Part shown: in pieces, positions 6,895-27,195 of the stretch
Layout: each line of letters begins with the position of its first letter
Position numbering within the stretch: position 1 is the stretch's first letter
Source of the DNA: a virus
Taxonomy: Duplodnaviria; Caudoviricetes
IMG/VR virus record: IMGVR_UViG_3300027486_000020
Coordinates: 1-29,844 of that record
Reading direction: 5' to 3' (one strand)
DNA length: 29,844 bases
The notes under the pieces: model-generated
What the model saw: only the letters and a program-made list of their open reading frames with translations
What the model was told of the DNA's origin: nothing
Database searches by the model: none
Translations under genes and position numbers: made by a program

Positions 6895-9453
6895 ATGGCA
6901 GTTGCAAAAGACTGGAGAGGTAACGTTGTTCCGGGCAACGTATATGAACTTGGTAACACCGATGGAATTGGTGCGCCGTCTTCTCCCGGTATTCAAGCTA
7001 TTCTTGATGGTCTTAAAGCAGGCAACGCTAAAATTGTTTCTGCTTATCCATATACTTATGGAAAAAATGGCTATACCGCTACTGGTTATACAGATCAGCA
7101 AGTTGAACCGTATTATATGGATTGGGAAACAGGACAACATAACGGCGGAAGTCAAATGTTGTTTATGAATGGTAAGTTATATCCTTTTGGAACTAACTGG
7201 AATATTGTTCCGATTACTCAAACAAAAACAACAGGCTATTGGCAAGACGAAATAGGCACACAAATCCCTATCAACCAAGAAGTACCAACAGGTATGTATA
7301 GAGTCCGTACACGGGCTGATAATAACGTATTTGATGAGGTTATTTTTAAGGCCGATGCTTCTGGTAATATAACAGGATATAATCCTAAGATTTACCAAAC
7401 AGGCAGCAATGGCGGTGGATTCTTTGGAAGTAGCCCTCTTGGTAATTTCTTAAATGATATGGTCGATCTGGCTCCCCTTGCCGCTGCCTTAATAGCCCCT
7501 CAATATTTGCCTTTAGTAGCGGGCGCTAAGACCGCTATTCAAGGCGGGGATATTGGCGACATTCTGAAATCGGCTGGTACGTCTTACGCTCTTGGTCAGC
7601 TTGGTCAGCAAGCAGGTGTTTTTGGCGATCAAGCAGCTGCTGCAACTCAATATGGTACAGGTTTGAATTCTGCTCAAACGGCTATGTTGGCCGCTCAAGA
7701 GGCTGGTTTGGGCACTGTTGCAGACGTTGCTGGGAATGTTATCGGCCAAGTAGGAACAAGCGTTGTTTCCCCAATAATAACAGGCAGAGATACCAATCCG
7801 TTAGATGTGCTTTTAAGTAGTGGTGTTTCTGCGGCTACGCCGTTTGTAACCAATCAAATTGAAGGTTTTTCCAAACTGCCTGTGTCAGCGCAGAATTCGA
7901 TTAACACAATTGTGGCCAGCGAATTACTGGATAAAGATCCGACGAATGCCCTTATAGCGGAAGCGTTGAAAGCCGGTAAAACTGCCTACTCGGATTTTAA
8001 ACAAGACTCTTCGCCGACGATAACAACCCCTTCAGGGGTTCAGTTGGCAGCAGCCGATACTGACACTGCGTCGGATGCAAGCGCGCCATATACGGTATCC
8101 GTCGGTGGTTCTCCTATTTATGAGGGCACCAAAGGCGCTGAAAACGTGTCGGCGCCTTTTGGTTATCGTTTGATGACCTTGGCTGAAGGAGATCAGCGGC
8201 CAGTGGGTTCATACTACGACGCAACACAAAATGCCTGGTTTGTCCCAACTAATGAAGTTCAGAAACTTCAGGAGCAACTGACTTCAGGTGCTCAAGATAC
8301 ATTAAGTGGTGGAAGCCTCGGGAGCGAAAGTGATTTACCCCCCGTAACTGGCGAACAAACAACAAACGAGATTCCCGCTGGTGAAATCGATTCGTTAGCT
8401 CCTATCGGAAGCGGAAATGTAACAAGCGGTGGTGGCGGCGCGATTGACGTAACAGGCACAGGCGGCGTTGGTGTGGCTGACGTAACAGGCACCGGCACAG
8501 GCGGCGTTGGTGTGGCTGACGTAACAGGCACTGGCACAGGCGGCGTTGGTGTGGCTGACGTAACAGGCACTGGCACAGGCGGCGTTGGTGTGGCTGACGT
8601 AACAGGCACAGGCATAAGCACAGGTGGTGGAAGCCTAGGGTCTGAGAGTGACATGCCCCCATCAAATGGTGGGAGTCTGGGAGATGAAAGTGACATGCCC
8701 CCATCAAATGGTGGGAGTCTGGGAGATGAAAGTGACATGCCCGCGCCGCCGGGAACTACAACACCGGGCACGGGCACGGGCACGGGCACAACTCCCGGAA
8801 CAGGTACTGGGACGATTCCACGCGTCACAATACCAGGCACTACAACACCTGGCTCTACAACACAAAACGCTACAGGTGCTTTTGCCACAACGCCTTCGGC
8901 GCCCATTGAAAACCTGACGTACAAGAACGCGTACACGGATTTTACGCCGCTTAACCCACTGCTGTTCTCGTTGGCTGGCTTGGGGCCCGTTACAGGATCA
9001 AGTGGTCAGCAAAACCCGTTGGATAGATCAGCGACCGACAAGGACGTGGCGTTTGGCACGTCGCTAGACAACGAACCACAAGAACAAAGCAACGCGCCCA
9101 TGGAATGGTTCTCTAAAGGTGGTCTTGCAGGCCAGCACCCGATGGGTGAGCCTCAGTACTATTCTGAGGGTGCGCTGACAAGCCTGCAAATCAAGGGTGA
9201 CGGCGACGGTACGTCCGACGACATCCCGGCCATGGTGGCAAAGGACGAGTACGTCCTGCCGGCCGATATCGTTTCATCGCTGGGTAACGGGTCCAGCGAC
9301 GCGGGCGCCTCGGTGCTCGACATGTTTGTGCGTCAGATTCGATCGCACAAACATTCCAACGACCCGGGTGAGTTGCCGCCCGACAGCGTGGGCCCGTTAG
9401 AATACTTGAGCGCAGCCATTTCAAAAGGACAGAAGCATGGCCGGAATATTTGA
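6895..9453 (+). CDS. Internal virion / DNA ejection protein with tandem repeats and conserved C-terminal GDGxSDDIPA-EYV domain
   Basis: 852 aa; AT-rich N-terminal part, Ala/Gly helical middle, Gly/Thr repeats, C-terminal FSKGG...IKGDGDGTSDDIPAMVAKDEYVLPADIVSSLGNGSSDAG. Confidence 0.7.
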   Translation: MAVAKDWRGNVVPGNVYELGNTDGIGAPSSPGIQAILDGLKAGNAKIVSAYPYTYGKNGYTATGYTDQQVEPYYMDWETGQHNGGSQMLFMNGKLYPFGTNWNIVPITQTKTTGYWQDEIGTQIPINQEVPTGMYRVRTRADNNVFDEVIFKADASGNITGYNPKIYQTGSNGGGFFGSSPLGNFLNDMVDLAPLAAALIAPQYLPLVAGAKTAIQGGDIGDILKSAGTSYALGQLGQQAGVFGDQAAAATQYGTGLNSAQTAMLAAQEAGLGTVADVAGNVIGQVGTSVVSPIITGRDTNPLDVLLSSGVSAATPFVTNQIEGFSKLPVSAQNSINTIVASELLDKDPTNALIAEALKAGKTAYSDFKQDSSPTITTPSGVQLAAADTDTASDASAPYTVSVGGSPIYEGTKGAENVSAPFGYRLMTLAEGDQRPVGSYYDATQNAWFVPTNEVQKLQEQLTSGAQDTLSGGSLGSESDLPPVTGEQTTNEIPAGEIDSLAPIGSGNVTSGGGGAIDVTGTGGVGVADVTGTGTGGVGVADVTGTGTGGVGVADVTGTGTGGVGVADVTGTGISTGGGSLGSESDMPPSNGGSLGDESDMPPSNGGSLGDESDMPAPPGTTTPGTGTGTGTTPGTGTGTIPRVTIPGTTTPGSTTQNATGAFATTPSAPIENLTYKNAYTDFTPLNPLLFSLAGLGPVTGSSGQQNPLDRSATDKDVAFGTSLDNEPQEQSNAPMEWFSKGGLAGQHPMGEPQYYSEGALTSLQIKGDGDGTSDDIPAMVAKDEYVLPADIVSSLGNGSSDAGASVLDMFVRQIRSHKHSNDPGELPPDSVGPLEYLSAAISKGQKHGRNI
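8446..8613 (+). repeat. In-frame 39-bp tandem repeat (DVTGTGTGGVGVA)
   Basis: One 33-bp copy (8446-8478), three near-identical 39-bp copies (8479, 8518, 8557) and a partial copy at 8596. Confidence 0.95.
8626..8742 (+). repeat. In-frame 42-bp tandem repeat (GGSLG[S/D]ESDMPPSN)
   Basis: Copies start at 8626, 8668 and 8710; a diverged copy (GGSLGSESDLPP) lies at 8308-8343. Confidence 0.9.
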
Positions 9454-10392: not shown

Positions 10393-12063
10393 ATGGCAGA
10401 CATGGAACAAACAGGCGGATTGCCTACAGCCACCGAAGACGGCGCGGTTGCCAAGTACGGCACCCGGGGCAACGTGTCCGTTGCCGGCCAAAAGGGCGTG
10501 TCGCTCGAGGGCGCGCAGAGCGCCGACATCCGCGAACGTCTGATGCAGATGATTGCCGAGCGTGAGCGCGGCAACCCCATGCAGGAAGCCCTGGGCCACC
10601 TTGCGTTGGCTGGAAGCGCACCGGGTGAGTATGGCCGCAACTACAACGACTATCTAACTCGTAAGCGCCAACAGGAACAAGACCTCCTGGGCATGCGTGT
10701 GAGCGCGGCACAGTTGGCCAGCGAAGAGGCTCGCCTGCGGCAAGCCGCCGCCGGACAGCGTCAGTTTGCTGACATGGTTTCCCGGGCCGCTGGCATTCAA
10801 CCGCAACAGCCTCAAGTCGGTGGCGCACCGATGGCACAACCGCAAGCGGGTGGTGCGCTTCCCACGGGTGGCGGGGCCGCTCCCCAGCCTACCGCGGGTG
10901 GCTTGCCGGGTCCCTCGCCGATGTTGACGCCGCAACAGGCCGCGACAATTATATCCATGAACATGCAGAACCCCGTCAAGGCGCAAGAACAATTCTTGTC
11001 GATGACCAACCCGACGGAAAAAGAGCGCATTGCAAGGGCCGCAGGGTTGACCCCTGGAACGCCCGAGTACGCCGCCTACATGCGAGCAAACCTTGCCGGC
11101 TCCGGCGCGTTTGTGCCTGGAGACGTTCGCACATCAAGGGGTACAGAACAAATCACGCCAATACAAACCGCGCTTGGCACTGTGACGCCCCAGGGGGCCG
11201 GTGCCCCCACCGCCGCGGTTCCTGGTGCCCCAGGAGTTACTGCTCCTGTAGCTCCGGGCGCTTCCGCCTCTGCGGCTCCTAGCGCCCCCGCTCGTGCCCC
11301 TGTGGCCCCTAGTGCTCCAACTCCCGCTATCCCCACAATGGATACCGGGTTTGCACCGGGCACTAGAGAGGACCTCGCCATTCGTCAACGTCGAGAAGAG
11401 ATGCGTCAGGACGTTGAAAAAGAAGCTGCAATTGAATCTAATAAAAAGATTGACATCCCCGAGCAAAAGGCTCTGGTCGACGCTGTTGCCGCCGCGCCAA
11501 GCAACTTGGTATTGTCCGGTGCTTTGATGAAAGACATCACAAACAACCCAGAGCTGTTTGGCAAGCTAATGCGCCCGGATATGTTCTCCGCATTCGCAAA
11601 CTTGGTCGCAAGCGGCGTGCAATTTGGTCAACTGGGCGCGGTTAACATTCCCGCGGTTGGTAACTTTATACAACAGCTATCTCCTGAAGCCAAAAAAGAC
11701 CCAACAAAGCTGGAGGCATGGAACCGCGTGCTTGGTAACATGGCTAAGGTCAACCTTAACTTTGCACGCATTGCGTACCAGGGTCAAGGCGCCGTGTCTA
11801 ACTTTGAACGCGAGCTTGTTGGCACCGCCGTCGGTGACCCCTCTCGTGACAGCGCAAAGAACTTGGCCATCAAGGCTAAGGTTATCGAGATTGAAGCCCG
11901 CAACGCCATGGAACAGAATAAGCTGTGGGAGCAAAGCAAGAAGAACATGGTGTGGTCGCAGTTCAAAGAAAGCCCGCAGTATAAAGATTTGCAACGCGCT
12001 CAGTTTTATCGCACCGCCAAGGTGCTGAAATTGGACGGCGCCAAGTGGCCCGGGGATGAATGA
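10393..12063 (+). CDS. Internal virion / DNA ejection protein
   Basis: 556 aa with Pro/Ala-rich linkers and a C-terminal helical domain containing GQGAVSNFEREL. Confidence 0.65.
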   Translation: MADMEQTGGLPTATEDGAVAKYGTRGNVSVAGQKGVSLEGAQSADIRERLMQMIAERERGNPMQEALGHLALAGSAPGEYGRNYNDYLTRKRQQEQDLLGMRVSAAQLASEEARLRQAAAGQRQFADMVSRAAGIQPQQPQVGGAPMAQPQAGGALPTGGGAAPQPTAGGLPGPSPMLTPQQAATIISMNMQNPVKAQEQFLSMTNPTEKERIARAAGLTPGTPEYAAYMRANLAGSGAFVPGDVRTSRGTEQITPIQTALGTVTPQGAGAPTAAVPGAPGVTAPVAPGASASAAPSAPARAPVAPSAPTPAIPTMDTGFAPGTREDLAIRQRREEMRQDVEKEAAIESNKKIDIPEQKALVDAVAAAPSNLVLSGALMKDITNNPELFGKLMRPDMFSAFANLVASGVQFGQLGAVNIPAVGNFIQQLSPEAKKDPTKLEAWNRVLGNMAKVNLNFARIAYQGQGAVSNFERELVGTAVGDPSRDSAKNLAIKAKVIEIEARNAMEQNKLWEQSKKNMVWSQFKESPQYKDLQRAQFYRTAKVLKLDGAKWPGDE

Positions 12064-15000
12064 TGGAGTGGCTTAACAAGCTATCTCCGCAACAACGGGC
12101 AATTGCTGACAAGGTTGCCGCAGAGGCTGACCGGCAGGGCGTGCCCCGTGAGCTTGCGCTCGCCGCCGCCATGCAAGAGAGCAGTTTTAAGCCACAGGCC
12201 AAGTCTAAAACGGGGCCCGTTGGCGTCATGATGCTTGGCCGCGCAGCGGCTAAAGAACAAGGCGTTAATCGATACAACATTGATCAAAACATTCGGGGTG
12301 GTGTTGGGTATCTGAAACAAAACTTAGCTCAACAAGGTGGCGACCCGCAACGCGCGTTGATCGCGTATCACGACGGACCCAACAGCGATTTTTTTAAGGG
12401 CGGCTCAATGAGCCCCGCCGCATACAATCACTTGCAAAAGGTTAAATCGTATGGCGGTTTTCAAGGAGACCTGATTCCCATGGCTACAAAACCAGAAAAT
12501 ACTAATACAGGAGTGAGTATCGCGGATATTGAACCTATCCCCGATATTCCTATGTTTTCTCAGCCTCAAGAGACTCCAGGGTTTGGGAACGCCGCTGACA
12601 TTGGCTCCGCTGGTGCCGGCGCTCTTACTGGCATGTTTACTGCGCCGTCGGTTCGTAAACAGGCGGAAATAAATCGGTCGTTAATTCAAGCGGCCAACGC
12701 GTCCAACGTGCCGATCAATGAAGCCAACGCTGCCAACATGCAGCGATACAACGACGAGCTGGCACAACGCAAACGTTTGCTTGATGCCATCACCGAGGCA
12801 CAGAAATCTGGCGGCGTTCCTGGCTACGTTGAGTCACAGCTACAGGGCGGCGCCGAGGATGTTGTTAGCCGGGACCCGCGCGTCATTTCAAACCGAACCG
12901 CACAGGCCGTGATCCCCGAGTACGAAAGCGGAAACACACGCGCGCAGGCCGTCAACCGCGGAGAGCTCGTGTCGGACCCCAACCGGTTTGCAGGCTTGTC
13001 TGTGCCCCGCACCGAATTGGCGCCCCCTGGCCCCACGCCGCAACAGTTGGTTGCTCAACAGCTGGGTCCAGAACCCACGCGCCCCGTGCCCCACCAGCTT
13101 AACGTTCCCCAAGTCCAACCCATCCGGAGCATGGCCGCACAAGGTGCGGCGACGGGCGCGTTGACCGGGTTCAACGCGTTGAAGGCGGCGGAGGGCATCC
13201 ACAGCGACGACCCGGTCAAGGCCCTGCTTGGCTCTGTTGGCGCCGTAAGCGGTGGTTTGGCTAACCAATCACGCAACCCGCGCACGGCGATGCTTGCCGG
13301 CACGTTGAGCGCCATCTCCGGCGCCGCCGGCCACGGACTGGATATGATTCGCGGGCAAAAGAAACCACAAGATAAGAGCGTACTCAACAAGGCAGAGGGA
13401 GGCCTTGCCCGCCTCCCAAAGTTCGCAGGCAAGGGCGAGTCACTCGTAAGGGGCGGTAAGGCCCTTGCCAAAAAAGCTGAAGATGTAATTGGTTTTTCAC
13501 CCGCAGAAAAACAACCGGACGCATGGAAGTTAGGCGATCAGAAGCCAGGCAAATTATCTGACTGGGCACAAAACTATTTAGGTCATTGGTACGTGCCCAC
13601 GCAGGCCGATCGTATGGGTGGCGTCGGCGGTTCAAGTTACAGCGCCAATCAGTTGGTGCTCCCCCAGTATGCCAATCGCGCGTGGGGATCTGGTAAAAAG
13701 GGCACCGCAACATCAATTGCTAACCTGGCAAAAGACCCAAGATTTGGCGGGCCGGAAAATCAAATATTTGCCCCCATCCTTGGCAAGAAAAACATGCACG
13801 AGTCTAATCAGATCGTGTTTAACACCCTGGTTGATGAGTTCTACAAAAATCCTGAGAAGTTGACGCCCGAGTTGCGGTCAAAAATCAACGCATACATTCA
13901 GTCGGGCGGCGTCACACCAAAGGGTAAACTAAAATTCGACCCCATTCCGGGTTTTGATATTGCGGATCGGGGAATGGTTGAAGAACTTGGCAAAACCTTT
14001 GACAAGCGCAAGGCCATTGCCCAACACGCGTTTGGTGGCGAGGGCATCAGTAAGACAAAGGCGCAGATCATTCCCTACCAGCAAATCCTAGACGAAATGT
14101 CTGACCCAATGACGCACGGAGCTCCGTCGTTCTCAATGGGTCCTCGCGCATTTAGGCTAACCGGTGAGGTTGAATCGGTGCCGCGCCCAGATCTGAATCT
14201 TGCGTATCCGAATCAACTGTTTGGTCAAGACTTAAACGTGACATACACGCCCGTGCCTGGCGAGCTGTCGCTGATGGATTTTGGAAATCAGTGGCGCAAA
14301 GATATGGGCAAGACGGAAGCAAAACCGAGCGGCGCATTACACCAACCTGGCTATTTTGAGTACACACTGGGTTACAAACTTCCCGGCGCGTCCGAGCGCA
14401 CCTATCCGCGCCAGTTAATGTCCGAGGAGTGGGTCAAAGAATTACAACGTAGTGGCTTTGCCGACGGGGGTCTGGTGAACTTGCAGTCTGGCGGCAATCC
14501 TAAAACGGCGCTGTTGAAAACGCTGGGTAACAAAGTGCTACCGCTGGTAGAACGTGACGCTAACCTGCAGAAGTTTCTCCTACCCAGTCAGGAGAAGCGT
14601 CGGATGTACCACGGGACAACGGGAGACATCAACAAGTTCAATCCGAACAACAACATCACCTTTTTGACGCCTGAGCCGACGTTTGCCAACTCATTCGCAG
14701 CTAAGAGTTTTGATCCGGTAGAGTCCCAGTCCCGGGGCCCGAACCCCGTGGTCAAGCCCGGCGCCAACGTGATGCCAGTGCATGTGCAGGCGGAGAACAT
14801 TTTTAACCCCTACAAGCCCTCGCACTTGGACTCGTTGTACGACAAGCTCATGCAGGACTACGGGCAAGACCTGGGTAGCTATAACGTTCGCCAAATGGTC
14901 CATGACGTTAAGAACCCCTACGACAACTGGCAGGCCATTGAGAACGACATGGTCCAAAAGGCCATCAAGGAACTTGGCCATGACTCGTTTGTCTCTACCG

Positions 15001-16934
15001 AGGCCGGCGTACAGAACCTGGGCATGTACAACCCGCGTAAGATCAAGTCGGCGATCGGCAACGAGGGCACGTATAACACAAACGAGCTGGACATCAACAA
15101 GGCCAAGGGCGGTCTGGTGCACCTGCAGTCTGGTGGTAATCCCAAGATGGCCGCGTTGAAGGCGATGGCCACGCCTGTTGTGGATCGTCTTAGCATGCAC
15201 TTCAAGGACGTCACCAAGCGCATCCCACAGTTGCAAGAGGCTGCACAGCGCATGAAAAACGGCGAACCTGTTACTCGTGAAGAGTATGAGATGCTAGTTA
15301 ACGCGTACAAGCCCGTGAAGCCTTTTGCATTTGTTCCAAAGCCGGCAACAAAAGAAGAAGCCATTAACGCGCTGACGGCGGACAAAAAAGGCCTGTTTGG
15401 TGCACCGTCTCAAATACTCCAACCGGGGCAAAGTGTAGGCCTTCGCCTTGACATACCGGCATACTCTGACCATGGCGTTTGGGTGCCTGCCGTTCACGAG
15501 AAGGGCACGAAGGCTGGCGCTGGTACACGTGTCGGATACGAGAGTGTGGCGTCTGTCAATAACCCCGTGTTCAACATGTCCGACAAGGGCGCACTGAGCA
15601 TTGCATCTGGTAAACCTAAGTCCACCATTGCCACGATCGAAGGCGGCTGGAACCCGGTCGACGAACAGACCGCCATAGCCAACGCACAACGATATCTGGA
15701 GCATCCGGACTGGCGTCAGGTGGGCATGGACCCCGAGCGCCACGGCTACTTCTACGACCGCGCGTCCATGGAACCGGTCCTGAGCGCTGAAGAGGCGCTA
15801 CAGATCGGTCCCCTGGTGTTGGCGCGCAAACCGGTGTATGGCAAGAAAGAAGACTTTGGTTTTGCTAAGGGCGGTCTGGTGCACATGCAATCGGGTGGTA
15901 ATCCCAAAGCGGCCGCTTTGAAGGCCTTTGCCGACCCCGCCGCCAAATACCTGAAGGACTGGTCCTGGAAGCCAATGCCTGAAGTTGCGGGTAAGCTGGA
16001 CCTGAGAACGGTGCCCGACTACATCCAGGGGGGCTACGGCCAGTTTATGAAGGACCAAGCCAGGCGCGCCGCCGCCGGCGACCTCAACGCCCGTGACCTG
16101 ATCAAGGCGTACACTATCACCCAGTCAAGCATTGGCCGCGGTGGGCTGTCGCATGCAACGGCCACCAAGGCCGGCCTCAAGCTGCCGAACACCGGCGGCG
16201 AGGTCCGACCCGAGGGCGCGTTTGCTGAGTGGCTCGGCTCCCCCATGGGCCAGCGCTACCTGGATACGGCGTCAGCCGGTCAGGCAGACCCCCGGGCCCT
16301 TGCTGAAATTCAACAGCAGTTTGCCCCGTTTGGAAAGCAAAACGACCTAATTGAAAAGATGCAGTACGCGGCGCAGACGATGCCCAACCTGTCGCAAAAC
16401 CTTAACCAAGCAGTCCTCGGCGACAAGGACGCGTATCGCAACTGGGCCGAGCAGATGAAGGGCGTGGCCGGTGCCAAGTCTGGATTCATTGGTTCGATGC
16501 TGGGCCGCGGTGACTTGCCCACGTTTGACGCGCGTCAGATTAACCTGCACACGGCAAACCAGGCTCCCGTCGGCATCAGTTCGATTATGAACCGCGGGAA
16601 GGGCCAGGGTGGCCGTGAGGCCGTCGATCGCCTTGCCGCGCGTCAGGAGGCCCTTGGGCTTGAACTGGACCCCTCCCTGGACCCGTTCTACCAGCATCTG
16701 ACCCATCACGCCGTGTGGGACAAGGTTGGCAACAACCAGACCACGCACGACGACCTAGTCAAGGCCATGCGTAACTACAAGGCTGGCGGTCAGGTTGGCC
16801 TGTATGCCAACATTCACGCCAAGCGTGAGCGCATCAAGCAAGGCTCTGGTGAGAAGATGCGCAAGCCTGGCTCTGAGGGCGCGCCCACGGCCGACGCCTT
16901 CCGCGAGTCTGCTAAGACAGCCAAGCGGAAATGA
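12060..16934 (+). CDS. Giant multidomain (polyvalent) ejection protein: lytic transglycosylase plus several effector-like modules
   Basis: 1624 aa. N-terminal SLT motifs (AMQESSF, GVMML, NIRGGVGYL, AYHDG); ART-like YHGT module; HhH-GPD-like module; modules separated by repeated xxxGG linkers. Confidence 0.85.
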   Translation: MMEWLNKLSPQQRAIADKVAAEADRQGVPRELALAAAMQESSFKPQAKSKTGPVGVMMLGRAAAKEQGVNRYNIDQNIRGGVGYLKQNLAQQGGDPQRALIAYHDGPNSDFFKGGSMSPAAYNHLQKVKSYGGFQGDLIPMATKPENTNTGVSIADIEPIPDIPMFSQPQETPGFGNAADIGSAGAGALTGMFTAPSVRKQAEINRSLIQAANASNVPINEANAANMQRYNDELAQRKRLLDAITEAQKSGGVPGYVESQLQGGAEDVVSRDPRVISNRTAQAVIPEYESGNTRAQAVNRGELVSDPNRFAGLSVPRTELAPPGPTPQQLVAQQLGPEPTRPVPHQLNVPQVQPIRSMAAQGAATGALTGFNALKAAEGIHSDDPVKALLGSVGAVSGGLANQSRNPRTAMLAGTLSAISGAAGHGLDMIRGQKKPQDKSVLNKAEGGLARLPKFAGKGESLVRGGKALAKKAEDVIGFSPAEKQPDAWKLGDQKPGKLSDWAQNYLGHWYVPTQADRMGGVGGSSYSANQLVLPQYANRAWGSGKKGTATSIANLAKDPRFGGPENQIFAPILGKKNMHESNQIVFNTLVDEFYKNPEKLTPELRSKINAYIQSGGVTPKGKLKFDPIPGFDIADRGMVEELGKTFDKRKAIAQHAFGGEGISKTKAQIIPYQQILDEMSDPMTHGAPSFSMGPRAFRLTGEVESVPRPDLNLAYPNQLFGQDLNVTYTPVPGELSLMDFGNQWRKDMGKTEAKPSGALHQPGYFEYTLGYKLPGASERTYPRQLMSEEWVKELQRSGFADGGLVNLQSGGNPKTALLKTLGNKVLPLVERDANLQKFLLPSQEKRRMYHGTTGDINKFNPNNNITFLTPEPTFANSFAAKSFDPVESQSRGPNPVVKPGANVMPVHVQAENIFNPYKPSHLDSLYDKLMQDYGQDLGSYNVRQMVHDVKNPYDNWQAIENDMVQKAIKELGHDSFVSTEAGVQNLGMYNPRKIKSAIGNEGTYNTNELDINKAKGGLVHLQSGGNPKMAALKAMATPVVDRLSMHFKDVTKRIPQLQEAAQRMKNGEPVTREEYEMLVNAYKPVKPFAFVPKPATKEEAINALTADKKGLFGAPSQILQPGQSVGLRLDIPAYSDHGVWVPAVHEKGTKAGAGTRVGYESVASVNNPVFNMSDKGALSIASGKPKSTIATIEGGWNPVDEQTAIANAQRYLEHPDWRQVGMDPERHGYFYDRASMEPVLSAEEALQIGPLVLARKPVYGKKEDFGFAKGGLVHMQSGGNPKAAALKAFADPAAKYLKDWSWKPMPEVAGKLDLRTVPDYIQGGYGQFMKDQARRAAAGDLNARDLIKAYTITQSSIGRGGLSHATATKAGLKLPNTGGEVRPEGAFAEWLGSPMGQRYLDTASAGQADPRALAEIQQQFAPFGKQNDLIEKMQYAAQTMPNLSQNLNQAVLGDKDAYRNWAEQMKGVAGAKSGFIGSMLGRGDLPTFDARQINLHTANQAPVGISSIMNRGKGQGGREAVDRLAARQEALGLELDPSLDPFYQHLTHHAVWDKVGNNQTTHDDLVKAMRNYKAGGQVGLYANIHAKRERIKQGSGEKMRKPGSEGAPTADAFRESAKTAKRK
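14466..14519 (+). repeat. 54-nt dispersed linker repeat, copy 1 (GGLVNLQSGGNPKTALLK)
   Basis: 42/54 identical to copy 2 by manual alignment. Confidence 0.9.
15108..15161 (+). repeat. 54-nt dispersed linker repeat, copy 2 (GGLVHLQSGGNPKMAALK)
   Basis: 47/54 identical to copy 3 by manual alignment. Confidence 0.9.
15870..15923 (+). repeat. 54-nt dispersed linker repeat, copy 3 (GGLVHMQSGGNPKAAALK)
   Basis: 47/54 identical to copy 2; four of the six differing codons are synonymous. Confidence 0.9.
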
Positions 16935-26050: not shown

Positions 26051-26529
26051 CAGTAGCCTCCGCGCTTGCGCGCTGACGCGCTTGTATCAATCCGAGGATT
26101 AGTTGGGCGCTGGATGTAGGTATTTGCAGGGTCGAAAATGGAGGGGGGTCGAAGACTTCCATATTTTTCTATCTCTTTCAATCTGTCGTGTAACCAGTCC
26201 GCCACCGCGTACAGCTCTCGTAGCTTGGCGTTGGACTTAATCATGTTGGCCTTGTTGCTAATGATAGCCACGTTGCCCCTGACGTAGCCCTTCTCGGGGT
26301 CGATGCGGTCCAGGCTGGGGGACGCGTGCTGGGGCGAGCCCTGTTTCGTTTTTGATTTGGTATCCCATAGCAACGCCGTGCCAAACACCGGGCAGATGTC
26401 GGGGGCGATGGAGCACAGGTACTCGAGGTCCACGTCGCAGGGGATGTCCTTTGCCTTGGCTCGCTTCTTTGCCCGGTACAACATGTTGTACATGTGCTTG
26501 CGCTTCTTCAGGTTGTTTTCTGGATTCAT
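26050..26529 (-). CDS. HNH-like (His-Me finger) endonuclease
   Basis: AK.RA...CPVFG...SPSLDRIDPEKGYVRGNVAIISNKANMIKSN. Confidence 0.8.
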   Translation of the reverse strand: MNPENNLKKRKHMYNMLYRAKKRAKAKDIPCDVDLEYLCSIAPDICPVFGTALLWDTKSKTKQGSPQHASPSLDRIDPEKGYVRGNVAIISNKANMIKSNAKLRELYAVADWLHDRLKEIEKYGSLRPPSIFDPANTYIQRPTNPRIDTSASARKRGGY

Positions 26530-26798
26530 AAACTGTCGACAAACTCGTCAACTTCCTCGAATGACGAAAGCACCCACGTCTTCACGCCACACGTATGTAT
26601 TTGCGAGATCACTAAGGTCTGACGTGGAGACAGTGAACCCGTCGGGGATTTTAGCTCCACCGGTATCACCTGACCCTGGAAGAACACCAGCCGGTCCGGC
26701 ACCCCCGTCGTTCCCGGGCTTGTCCACTTCAGACACAACCCTCCCCTCGCCTTTATCTTTTTGACGAGTCTTTGCTCGACGTCCTTCTCTCTTGTCAT
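26526..26798 (-). CDS. VRR-NUC domain nuclease (90 aa)
   Basis: Start placed at ATG 26798: MTREKDVEQRL...KW.SPG..GVPDRL......VELK...G.LS..Q. Confidence 0.9.
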   Translation of the reverse strand: MTREKDVEQRLVKKIKARGGLCLKWTSPGTTGVPDRLVFFQGQVIPVELKSPTGSLSPRQTLVISQIHTCGVKTWVLSSFEEVDEFVDSL

Positions 26799-27195
26799 TC
26801 TTTTCCATCTCCAGTATGCACCCGGTGAACATCTGCTCGACGAGGTGTTGCATGAGGTACGCGCGCGTCTCCTCGCCAAAGTCTTCCACGTTCTCGCCGA
26901 TGTGCTCCAGCAGGCGCGTGATGACGTGCGAGGCCTCGTGTGCGATGGTGCCCGCCAGACAAGCGGGGTTGTTGCCGATGGCCTTGAGGTCAAAGCCCAC
27001 GATGACGACCGACTCCTTGGCCGTCGAGAACGAGTGCGTCTCCGCCATGCCAAGCTCGAACGCCTGCGGATCCTCGTGCACCTTGACGTTGTAGTCCTTC
27101 AGTATCTGCTTGAAGACCTTGGCGTTGAAGCACATCGCGACCGGCAGCGGGAAGAACCCCACGTCGACTGAATAGTACTGGTAGCGCTTGCTCAT
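26548..27195 (-). CDS. HExxH zincin-like metallopeptidase-motif protein with C-terminal tail overlapping VRR-NUC
   Basis: Start placed at ATG 27195 (MSKRYQ); IAHEASH followed by EETRAYL; frame stays open 251 nt into the VRR-NUC gene. Confidence 0.7.
   Translation of the reverse strand: MSKRYQYYSVDVGFFPLPVAMCFNAKVFKQILKDYNVKVHEDPQAFELGMAETHSFSTAKESVVIVGFDLKAIGNNPACLAGTIAHEASHVITRLLEHIGENVEDFGEETRAYLMQHLVEQMFTGCILEMEKNDKREGRRAKTRQKDKGEGRVVSEVDKPGNDGGAGPAGVLPGSGDTGGAKIPDGFTVSTSDLSDLANTYVWREDVGAFVIRGS

Follow-up and report, generated by a model that had tools for sequence, protein, structure and literature searches.

Phage polyvalent proteins gather many unrelated conflict-type domains in one late-gene polypeptide, and their packaging, injection and processing into units have been predicted (PMC5512222). 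A built-in MPTase, common but not universal among them, is the proposed cutter, and that account describes no motif at the junctions (PMC5512222). In ASFV, the virion-internal polyproteins pp220 and pp62 are cut after Gly-Gly during maturation by pS273R, which acts at Gly-Gly-X (PMC10308890), and the prohead-protease processing of T4, phiKZ and SPN3US uses one short site across many head-internal proteins and extends to the capsid protein (PMC10052503). Cryo-EM resolves two segments of the crAss001 protein gp45 (C1), a tail segment of residues 214-245 and a portal-bound one of residues 425-552 (PMC10172136; PDB 7QOG); the authors treat the protein as a single threaded chain, and their paper mentions neither a motif nor cleavage. 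Lambda gpH loses a C-terminal piece of ~14 kDa, the site and catalyst of which were stated to be unknown in 2025 (PMC12617516).

An ejection-type protein with five added modules

The window analysed here is the whole of a 29.8-kb virus record (29,844 nucleotides), with a completeness estimate of 45%. It contains lysis genes, an SU10-type adaptor, a nozzle-like gene and four ejection-cluster genes, with replication genes on the opposite strand, and judged by this gene content it is a podophage without its head module. At 26526-27053, VRR-NUC nuclease homology is limited to the last ~90 residues of the frame, the true start of which is likely internal.

The final gene of the adaptor-nozzle-ejection cluster (12060..16934, + strand) is an ORF for a 1624-aa polyprotein in which domain searches delineate an SLT ejection protein and five motif-delimited cassettes. 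Residues 1-443 (12060..13388, +) form the SLT-bearing internal virion (ejection) protein, which matches phrog_342 and has its SLT domain at aa 20-109 (Pfam, E 1e-16); as a large SLT protein encoded after the nozzle gene, the product fits the podophage ejection proteins of that type. The complete phage MW202545 encodes a 411-aa homologue of this part at the same gene position (33% identity over aa 5-262), in keeping with the initial annotation, which had called the host protein ejection-like. Because the homologue ends without further modules, the cassette chain is an addition to an ordinary ejection-type protein. Gene position, the SLT domain and the analogy with crAss001 make it likely that the 1624-aa protein is packed in the phage head and injected. 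A beta-ketoacyl synthase-like gene lies between the nozzle and ejection genes of MW202545 (L146:22437-23381).

Five copies of the motif [YFK][AK]xGGx[VA] punctuate the protein, each at the position first annotated. The first, KAEGGLA, belongs to linker KAEGGLARLPKFAGKG at aa 444 (13389..13409, +). The second, FADGGLVNLQSGGNPK, at aa 800 (14457..14504, +), has another GG eight residues later, and is followed by KAKGGLVHLQSGGNPK at aa 1014 (15099..15146, +), FAKGGLVHMQSGGNPK at aa 1268 (15861..15908, +; pLDDT <50 at model residues 257-268) and YKAGGQV at aa 1573 (16776..16796, +). The pattern [FYK][AK].GG[LQ][VA] is observed five times against a mean of 0.009 per shuffle, with 0/5000 shuffles reaching 5; it was devised after inspection of the sequence, and the homologue set described below is the independent test. 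As proposed, the linkers mark boundaries of independent domains: the AlphaFold models of M1 and of M3+M4 are folded, and the linker stretches between folded domains are disordered in both (pLDDT <50). A linker profile compared with the PDB matched designed repeat proteins only.

M1 (13467..14456, +) is a folded module (AF2 pTM 0.78) with 18 segments in its family. Structure comparison gave a weak PUA-like (YTH/EVE) likeness, with Z of 5.3-5.7, level with unrelated CARD helices; close relatives were absent in a direct scan and the ESM Atlas held no usable match. M2 (14532..15098, +) is an ART-PolyVal ADP-ribosyltransferase-like module with YHGT at aa 850 and TEAG at aa 980. As a cut-out segment it scores 33.3 bits against the ART-PolyVal (PF18760) curated cut-off of 31.2, the whole protein scoring 28.4 bits, and it has the His-Gly-Thr and late Glu of that family. 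M3 (15177..15860, +) is a folded alpha/beta module in the AlphaFold model. It matched no known family, it had no structural match when searched as a joint M3+M4 model, in which M4 matches filled the lists, and its ESM Atlas scores were 0.77 at most.

Structure comparison assigns M4 (15942..16775, +) the HhH-GPD DNA glycosylase fold, closest to Ogg2. Against Tm1821 (3n0u) it gave Z 16.0 and rmsd 2.8 over 200 aligned residues with 14% identity, Foldseek alone giving E 0.06, and the HhH Lys (aa 1474) and downstream Asp (aa 1490) are invariant in 31 aligned homologues. Profiles of M1, M3 and M4 found nothing below E 0.25 among PDB sequences. M5 (16797..16931, +) is a 45-aa basic peptide belonging to phrog_16028 (E 7.5e-26); there are matches in 98 phage records, and cultured cyano-, pelagi- and roseophages encode it as a gene of its own, the counterpart in S-SBP1 being a separate 51-aa gene between the scaffold and capsid genes.

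The identities first suggested for M2, M4 and M5 were thus confirmed. The accompanying claim that all modules are host-takeover effectors was not: M4, as modelled, looks like a DNA-repair-type HhH-GPD glycosylase of Ogg2 type and may equally repair injected DNA, M5 is a basic peptide whose gene, in other phages, lies between those for the scaffold and the capsid, and the searches assigned no activity to M1 or M3. The label "effector" is justified for the ART-like module only. With SLT, ART-PolyVal and the HhH-GPD fold, the protein contains the at least two unrelated conflict-type domains by which polyvalent proteins are defined.

Polarity of the motif and exchange of modules

Loci recovered by scanning with M4, M3 and the N-terminal part contained 167 proteins with M1-M4, reduced to 104 by near-duplicate removal, a set biased towards M3/M4 carriers. 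These related polyproteins contain 270 strict motifs against 3 in shuffles, which bears out the proposal of a standard joint between unrelated modules. A motif stands no more than 15 aa from 59% of 4833 internal alignment ends (9% at random) and from 34% of 4707 internal starts (8.5% at random), with pairs that are not independent. Cutting at the motif yields 346 segments in 65 families and 88 architectures, a number to which cut contigs and missed motifs contribute, so module number and order vary as anticipated. Most of 94 representative segments had no Pfam match; the matches include ART-PolyVal, LPD23, LPD22, LPD38, InPase, zincin-like DUF6782, PcfJ and DUF6321. Among 93 loci, the chain is a separate gene beside terminase/portal in 77 and stands in the ejection cluster, like the window, in 9, with 7 unplaced. 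The C-terminal tails of many polyproteins contain a second recurring short element, D-x-M-R-x-E-L with basic residues, often placed behind the last motif.

When module ends are anchored without the motif, GG is found at a fixed offset after 57/57 M4, 23/24 M2 (ART) and 51/53 M3 ends; the ART end without GG is a cut contig, and LPD-type proteins lacking linkers seem to account for the two M3 exceptions. The motif follows 28/29 last modules (NKKGG stands in the remaining case), where the tail may be as short as 2 residues, and precedes 90/102 internal modules and 3/34 first modules. It belongs to the C-terminal end of each module, the last module included. The initial annotation, in which the linker merely lay between modules, is too narrow in this respect, and the motif is also found in scaffolds and in unstructured lysine-rich proteins. 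Some copies stand 2-5 residues from the stop, as in the protein ends FRKGGLS, YRGGGLA and HARGGVAK. Positions P5-P1 are conserved (Y/K/F, A/K, x, G, G; P5 is Y/K/F in 96/102) and P1' is free, with V, I or A at P2' in 86/102. Terminal copies are more basic, with 1.66 K/R at the four scored positions against 0.73.

At the DNA level, linkers 2-4 double as a 69-nt repeat with 74-84% identity to a reference copy. Four near-identical phages have M1 or M3 swapped for 30-34% identical homologues, or M2 deleted, between flanks that are 94-99% identical. Between the 1624-aa gene and four close relatives, 12/12 breakpoints (9 distinct) fall 7-97 nt after a linker start, a zone that makes up 10% of the gene, and the linker DNA is a seam for module exchange among close relatives. 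Both the breakpoints and the linker repeat would also be expected if the linker were a flexible seam only, retained as DNA micro-homology for cassette exchange. This explanation is improbable, however, as all four Gly codons are used at both GG positions across the relative set, and selection therefore acts on the peptide. Moreover, the choice of residues at P5 is narrow, and the peptide persists between lineages whose DNA is not alike, as well as in scaffolds and in cassette-free repeat proteins.

Motif carriers and the question of cleavage

A module-end profile applied to ten genomes (783 ORFs) found 112 sites against 9-16 in shuffles, 88 of them in 18 ORFs; this enrichment is partly circular, the profile having been derived from related lineages. 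The motif is carried by polyproteins, by lysine-rich proteins whose genes come after the capsid gene, by some scaffolds and by first ejection proteins. Lysine-rich head-region proteins of 360-446 aa have 7-9 scored copies, and the motif is optional in the acidic linker of the scaffold (18/34 by a looser pattern). The capsid proteins of the ten genomes have zero scored sites, and single matches in one portal and one tail protein are within the shuffle rate. The unstructured lysine-rich proteins encoded after the capsid gene at L146:37301-38650, L172:1127-2464 and L175:6551-7807, with 7-9 or more copies, have no family match.

In the window, FSKGG (aa 739) and then a hook/anchor domain close the first ejection-cluster protein (9109..9453, +). 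This domain, G-x-G-x-G-x-S-D-x-I-P-A...E-Y-V (also E[YF]V), is common to tape measure proteins and matches those of Douge and JBD30 (E 1.4e-8 and 1.3e-4, respectively). It is found in 16/17 near-complete genomes; the exception is G020, where M3 lies within a classical polyvalent protein and the single motif site is at chance level. Profile comparison of the hook domain with gpH (probability 1.8%) and with crAss CARG1 was not significant. The same ORF (6895-9453) contains Gly/Thr-rich tandem repeats at 8400-8900 (GTGTGGVGVADVT, GGSLGxESDxP).

The motif may be a processing site that is cut after its second glycine, each piece keeping a C-terminal tag, a reading to which we give not quite an even chance. 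A cut during particle assembly would turn the ejection protein into a transglycosylase and separate injected modules, each with a C-terminal xxGG end, and the freed end would have a role of its own, accounting for copies two residues from the stop. We infer packaging, the cut, its position after GG, its timing and the role of the GG end alike. Conserved P5-P1 with a free P1' is the grammar of a non-prime-side protease site. The cut is also favoured by the fixed offset of GG after module ends, by the existence of M5 as its own gene elsewhere and, by analogy, by the precedent of ASFV pS273R. Multiplication of the motif in unstructured proteins and its optional presence in the scaffold linker point the same way and resemble the prohead-protease sites of SPN3US.

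Several observations count against a cut. Searches of 28, 21 and 17 selected proteins (conserved head-region proteins; a set out of 783 ORFs) recognised no protease, and the head module, which looks like that of P22, contains no recognisable prohead protease. The 1624-aa protein itself has no peptidase family match and no zincin module, zincin-like DUF6782 occurring in the cassettes of some relatives only. A conserved 181-aa gene between the scaffold and capsid genes (L185:15190-15732 and 33 homologues) encodes an invariant His, two Cys and Asp, which in the alignment suggest a possible protease or metal site; the protein has no family match and no counterpart in the annotated head regions of CRP-207 or crAss001. 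For mere separation, copies lying 2-5 residues before the stop would serve no purpose, so that cutting requires the assumption of a useful GG end.

Evidence from cultured phages bears on the same question. Among them, the Roseobacter phage CRP-207 combines module M3, four motifs and the hook domain in its gp58. In crAss001, gp45 (L148:1987-4515) has about eight looser xAxGG-like stretches, including the C-terminal KAKGGKVRTKKK, and is the sole protein with a profile score of at least 10 among 25 from the structural region, although the fit is partial (2/21 GG sites score at least 10, and P3 is often aromatic). Its published segments, 214-245 and 425-552, begin at or just after GG-like stretches. 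The portal-bound domain is described as modelled from residue 425, within NAFGG (424-428), with AFGG ordered (PMC10172136), and on that description this copy is therefore uncut after GG.

Published MALDI lists from 13 virion gel bands of crAss001 (PMC6235969) were re-fingerprinted. The proteins detected were gp44, gp47+gp50, gp49, portal, gp26, gp22, gp25, gp23, capsid and gp36, with motif-free gp47, gp49 and gp50 running at full length. In bands 5-9 the 93-kDa portal gave 11 peaks against 1.9 for decoys, whereas gp45 (91 kDa) stayed at decoy level there and never rose above non-virion controls in the 13 bands. Its absence may reflect sensitivity, because motif-free gp46 is missing as well, and cut pieces of gp45 would be below 29 kDa, a range with just one excised band. 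The gel data lean weakly towards processing of gp45. A semi-tryptic mass of 1048.53 ending at GG was discarded as a chance match, since it came from the 270-kDa band. Lambda gpH (L147:1543-4104) has FATGG at 733-737 and YATGG at 778-782, near its maturation cut; a cut after G737 would release 12.2 kDa, compared with the ~14 kDa lost. The failure to find full-length gp45 and the loss from gpH near FATGG favour cutting, and the uncut NAFGG copy, the partial profile fit of gp45 and the mismatch in mass of the gpH piece weigh against it.

A less probable but substantial alternative is that the motif stays uncut and serves as an address or grip, a peptide bound by the portal, scaffold or hook domain for head loading or for re-engagement of modules during tail threading. 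Encapsulin cargo-loading peptides are comparable loading tags. Such a tag would account for the asymmetry between last and first modules, the copies at extreme C-termini with their more basic character, and the preference at P2'; the ordered AFGG at the start of the portal-bound gp45 domain and the lack of a protease in the selected proteins scanned agree with it. Yet a single tag would suffice and internal joints nevertheless keep one, full-length gp45 was not detected, and three large cargo proteins packaged by crAss001 (PMC10172136) lack the motif.

The protein could instead be injected whole and cut in the cell by a host protease recognising Gly-Gly, which would explain why the selected phage proteins yielded no protease and why the motif occurs in phage lineages that differ in their head genes; Iyer et al. 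propose that domains are released inside the host (PMC5512222). We consider this a poor prospect: the hosts are very different, the motif also marks scaffolds and lysine-rich proteins of the head region, for which injection is not obvious, and full-length gp45 seems already absent from virions.

A broader form of the cut reading is speculative and rather unlikely. A single ubiquitin-like di-glycine grammar would run across tailed phages, with freshwater podophage cargo chains, scaffolds, basic core proteins, gp45 and lambda-type tape measures all being cleaved behind [YFK]AxGG, the hook domain possibly acting as the enzyme or as the place of cutting. If so, it would be a plug-in format: any enzyme with the motif at its end would be packaged, freed and injected; the gpH cut, unmapped for 50 years, would lie at G737, and the head and tail segments of gp45 would be separate pieces.

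Relation to known systems

The prohead-protease sites of T4, phiKZ and SPN3US end in Glu, and adenovirus protease sites are similar to Gly-Gly-X. Like the former system, the motif is one short signal across many head-internal proteins; unlike it, the capsid protein here has no scored motif and no protease was recognised among the selected proteins. The likeness to ASFV is in the virion-internal polyproteins and the Gly-Gly. ASFV belongs to another virus realm, its products are structural in the cited description and not shuffled cassettes, and no SUMO-protease-like gene was found here. The crAss001 protein gp45 is likewise a first ejection protein punctuated by GG-like stretches, although it fits the freshwater profile in part only and its portal-bound domain has no significant likeness to the hook domain.

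The first ejection protein of the window resembles tape measures in its closing domain, and the comparison extends to the lambda gpH cleavage (PMC12617516) and the JBD30 tape-measure hook (PMC11445458): [FY]AxGG copies lie on either side of a GE[FY]V-type segment close to the C-terminus. Those proteins are of the tail and not the head, and the direct profile match to gpH is weak. Cleavage is not mentioned in the Douge paper, and no description of the GG motif was found in the phage literature outside subscription papers.

With the motif as a sequence rule, thousands of hypothetical giant proteins from abundant aquatic phages can be divided into single modules, and the 65 segment families, most of them unannotated and all from a small sample, form a catalogue of candidate injected enzymes. 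As a cut site or a tag, it would also be a portable handle for loading proteins into phage heads. Two structural questions can now be addressed directly in cultured phages, namely the position of the gpH cut and the way in which a single crAss001 protein lies on both sides of the portal.

The closest relatives are the polyvalent proteins. The 1624-aa protein is, like them, encoded among virion genes, and ART-PolyVal, LPD23, InPase and zincin-like domains, in the published description of that group, are common to the related cassettes. It differs in that a fixed xxxGG motif closes each module and a built-in zincin MPTase was not found in it; the classical LPD-type relative (G020/L133) has neither the motif nor the hook domain. 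Polyvalent proteins and Gly-Gly polyprotein processing, as in ASFV, were already known, and the GG motif in phages would be the new part.
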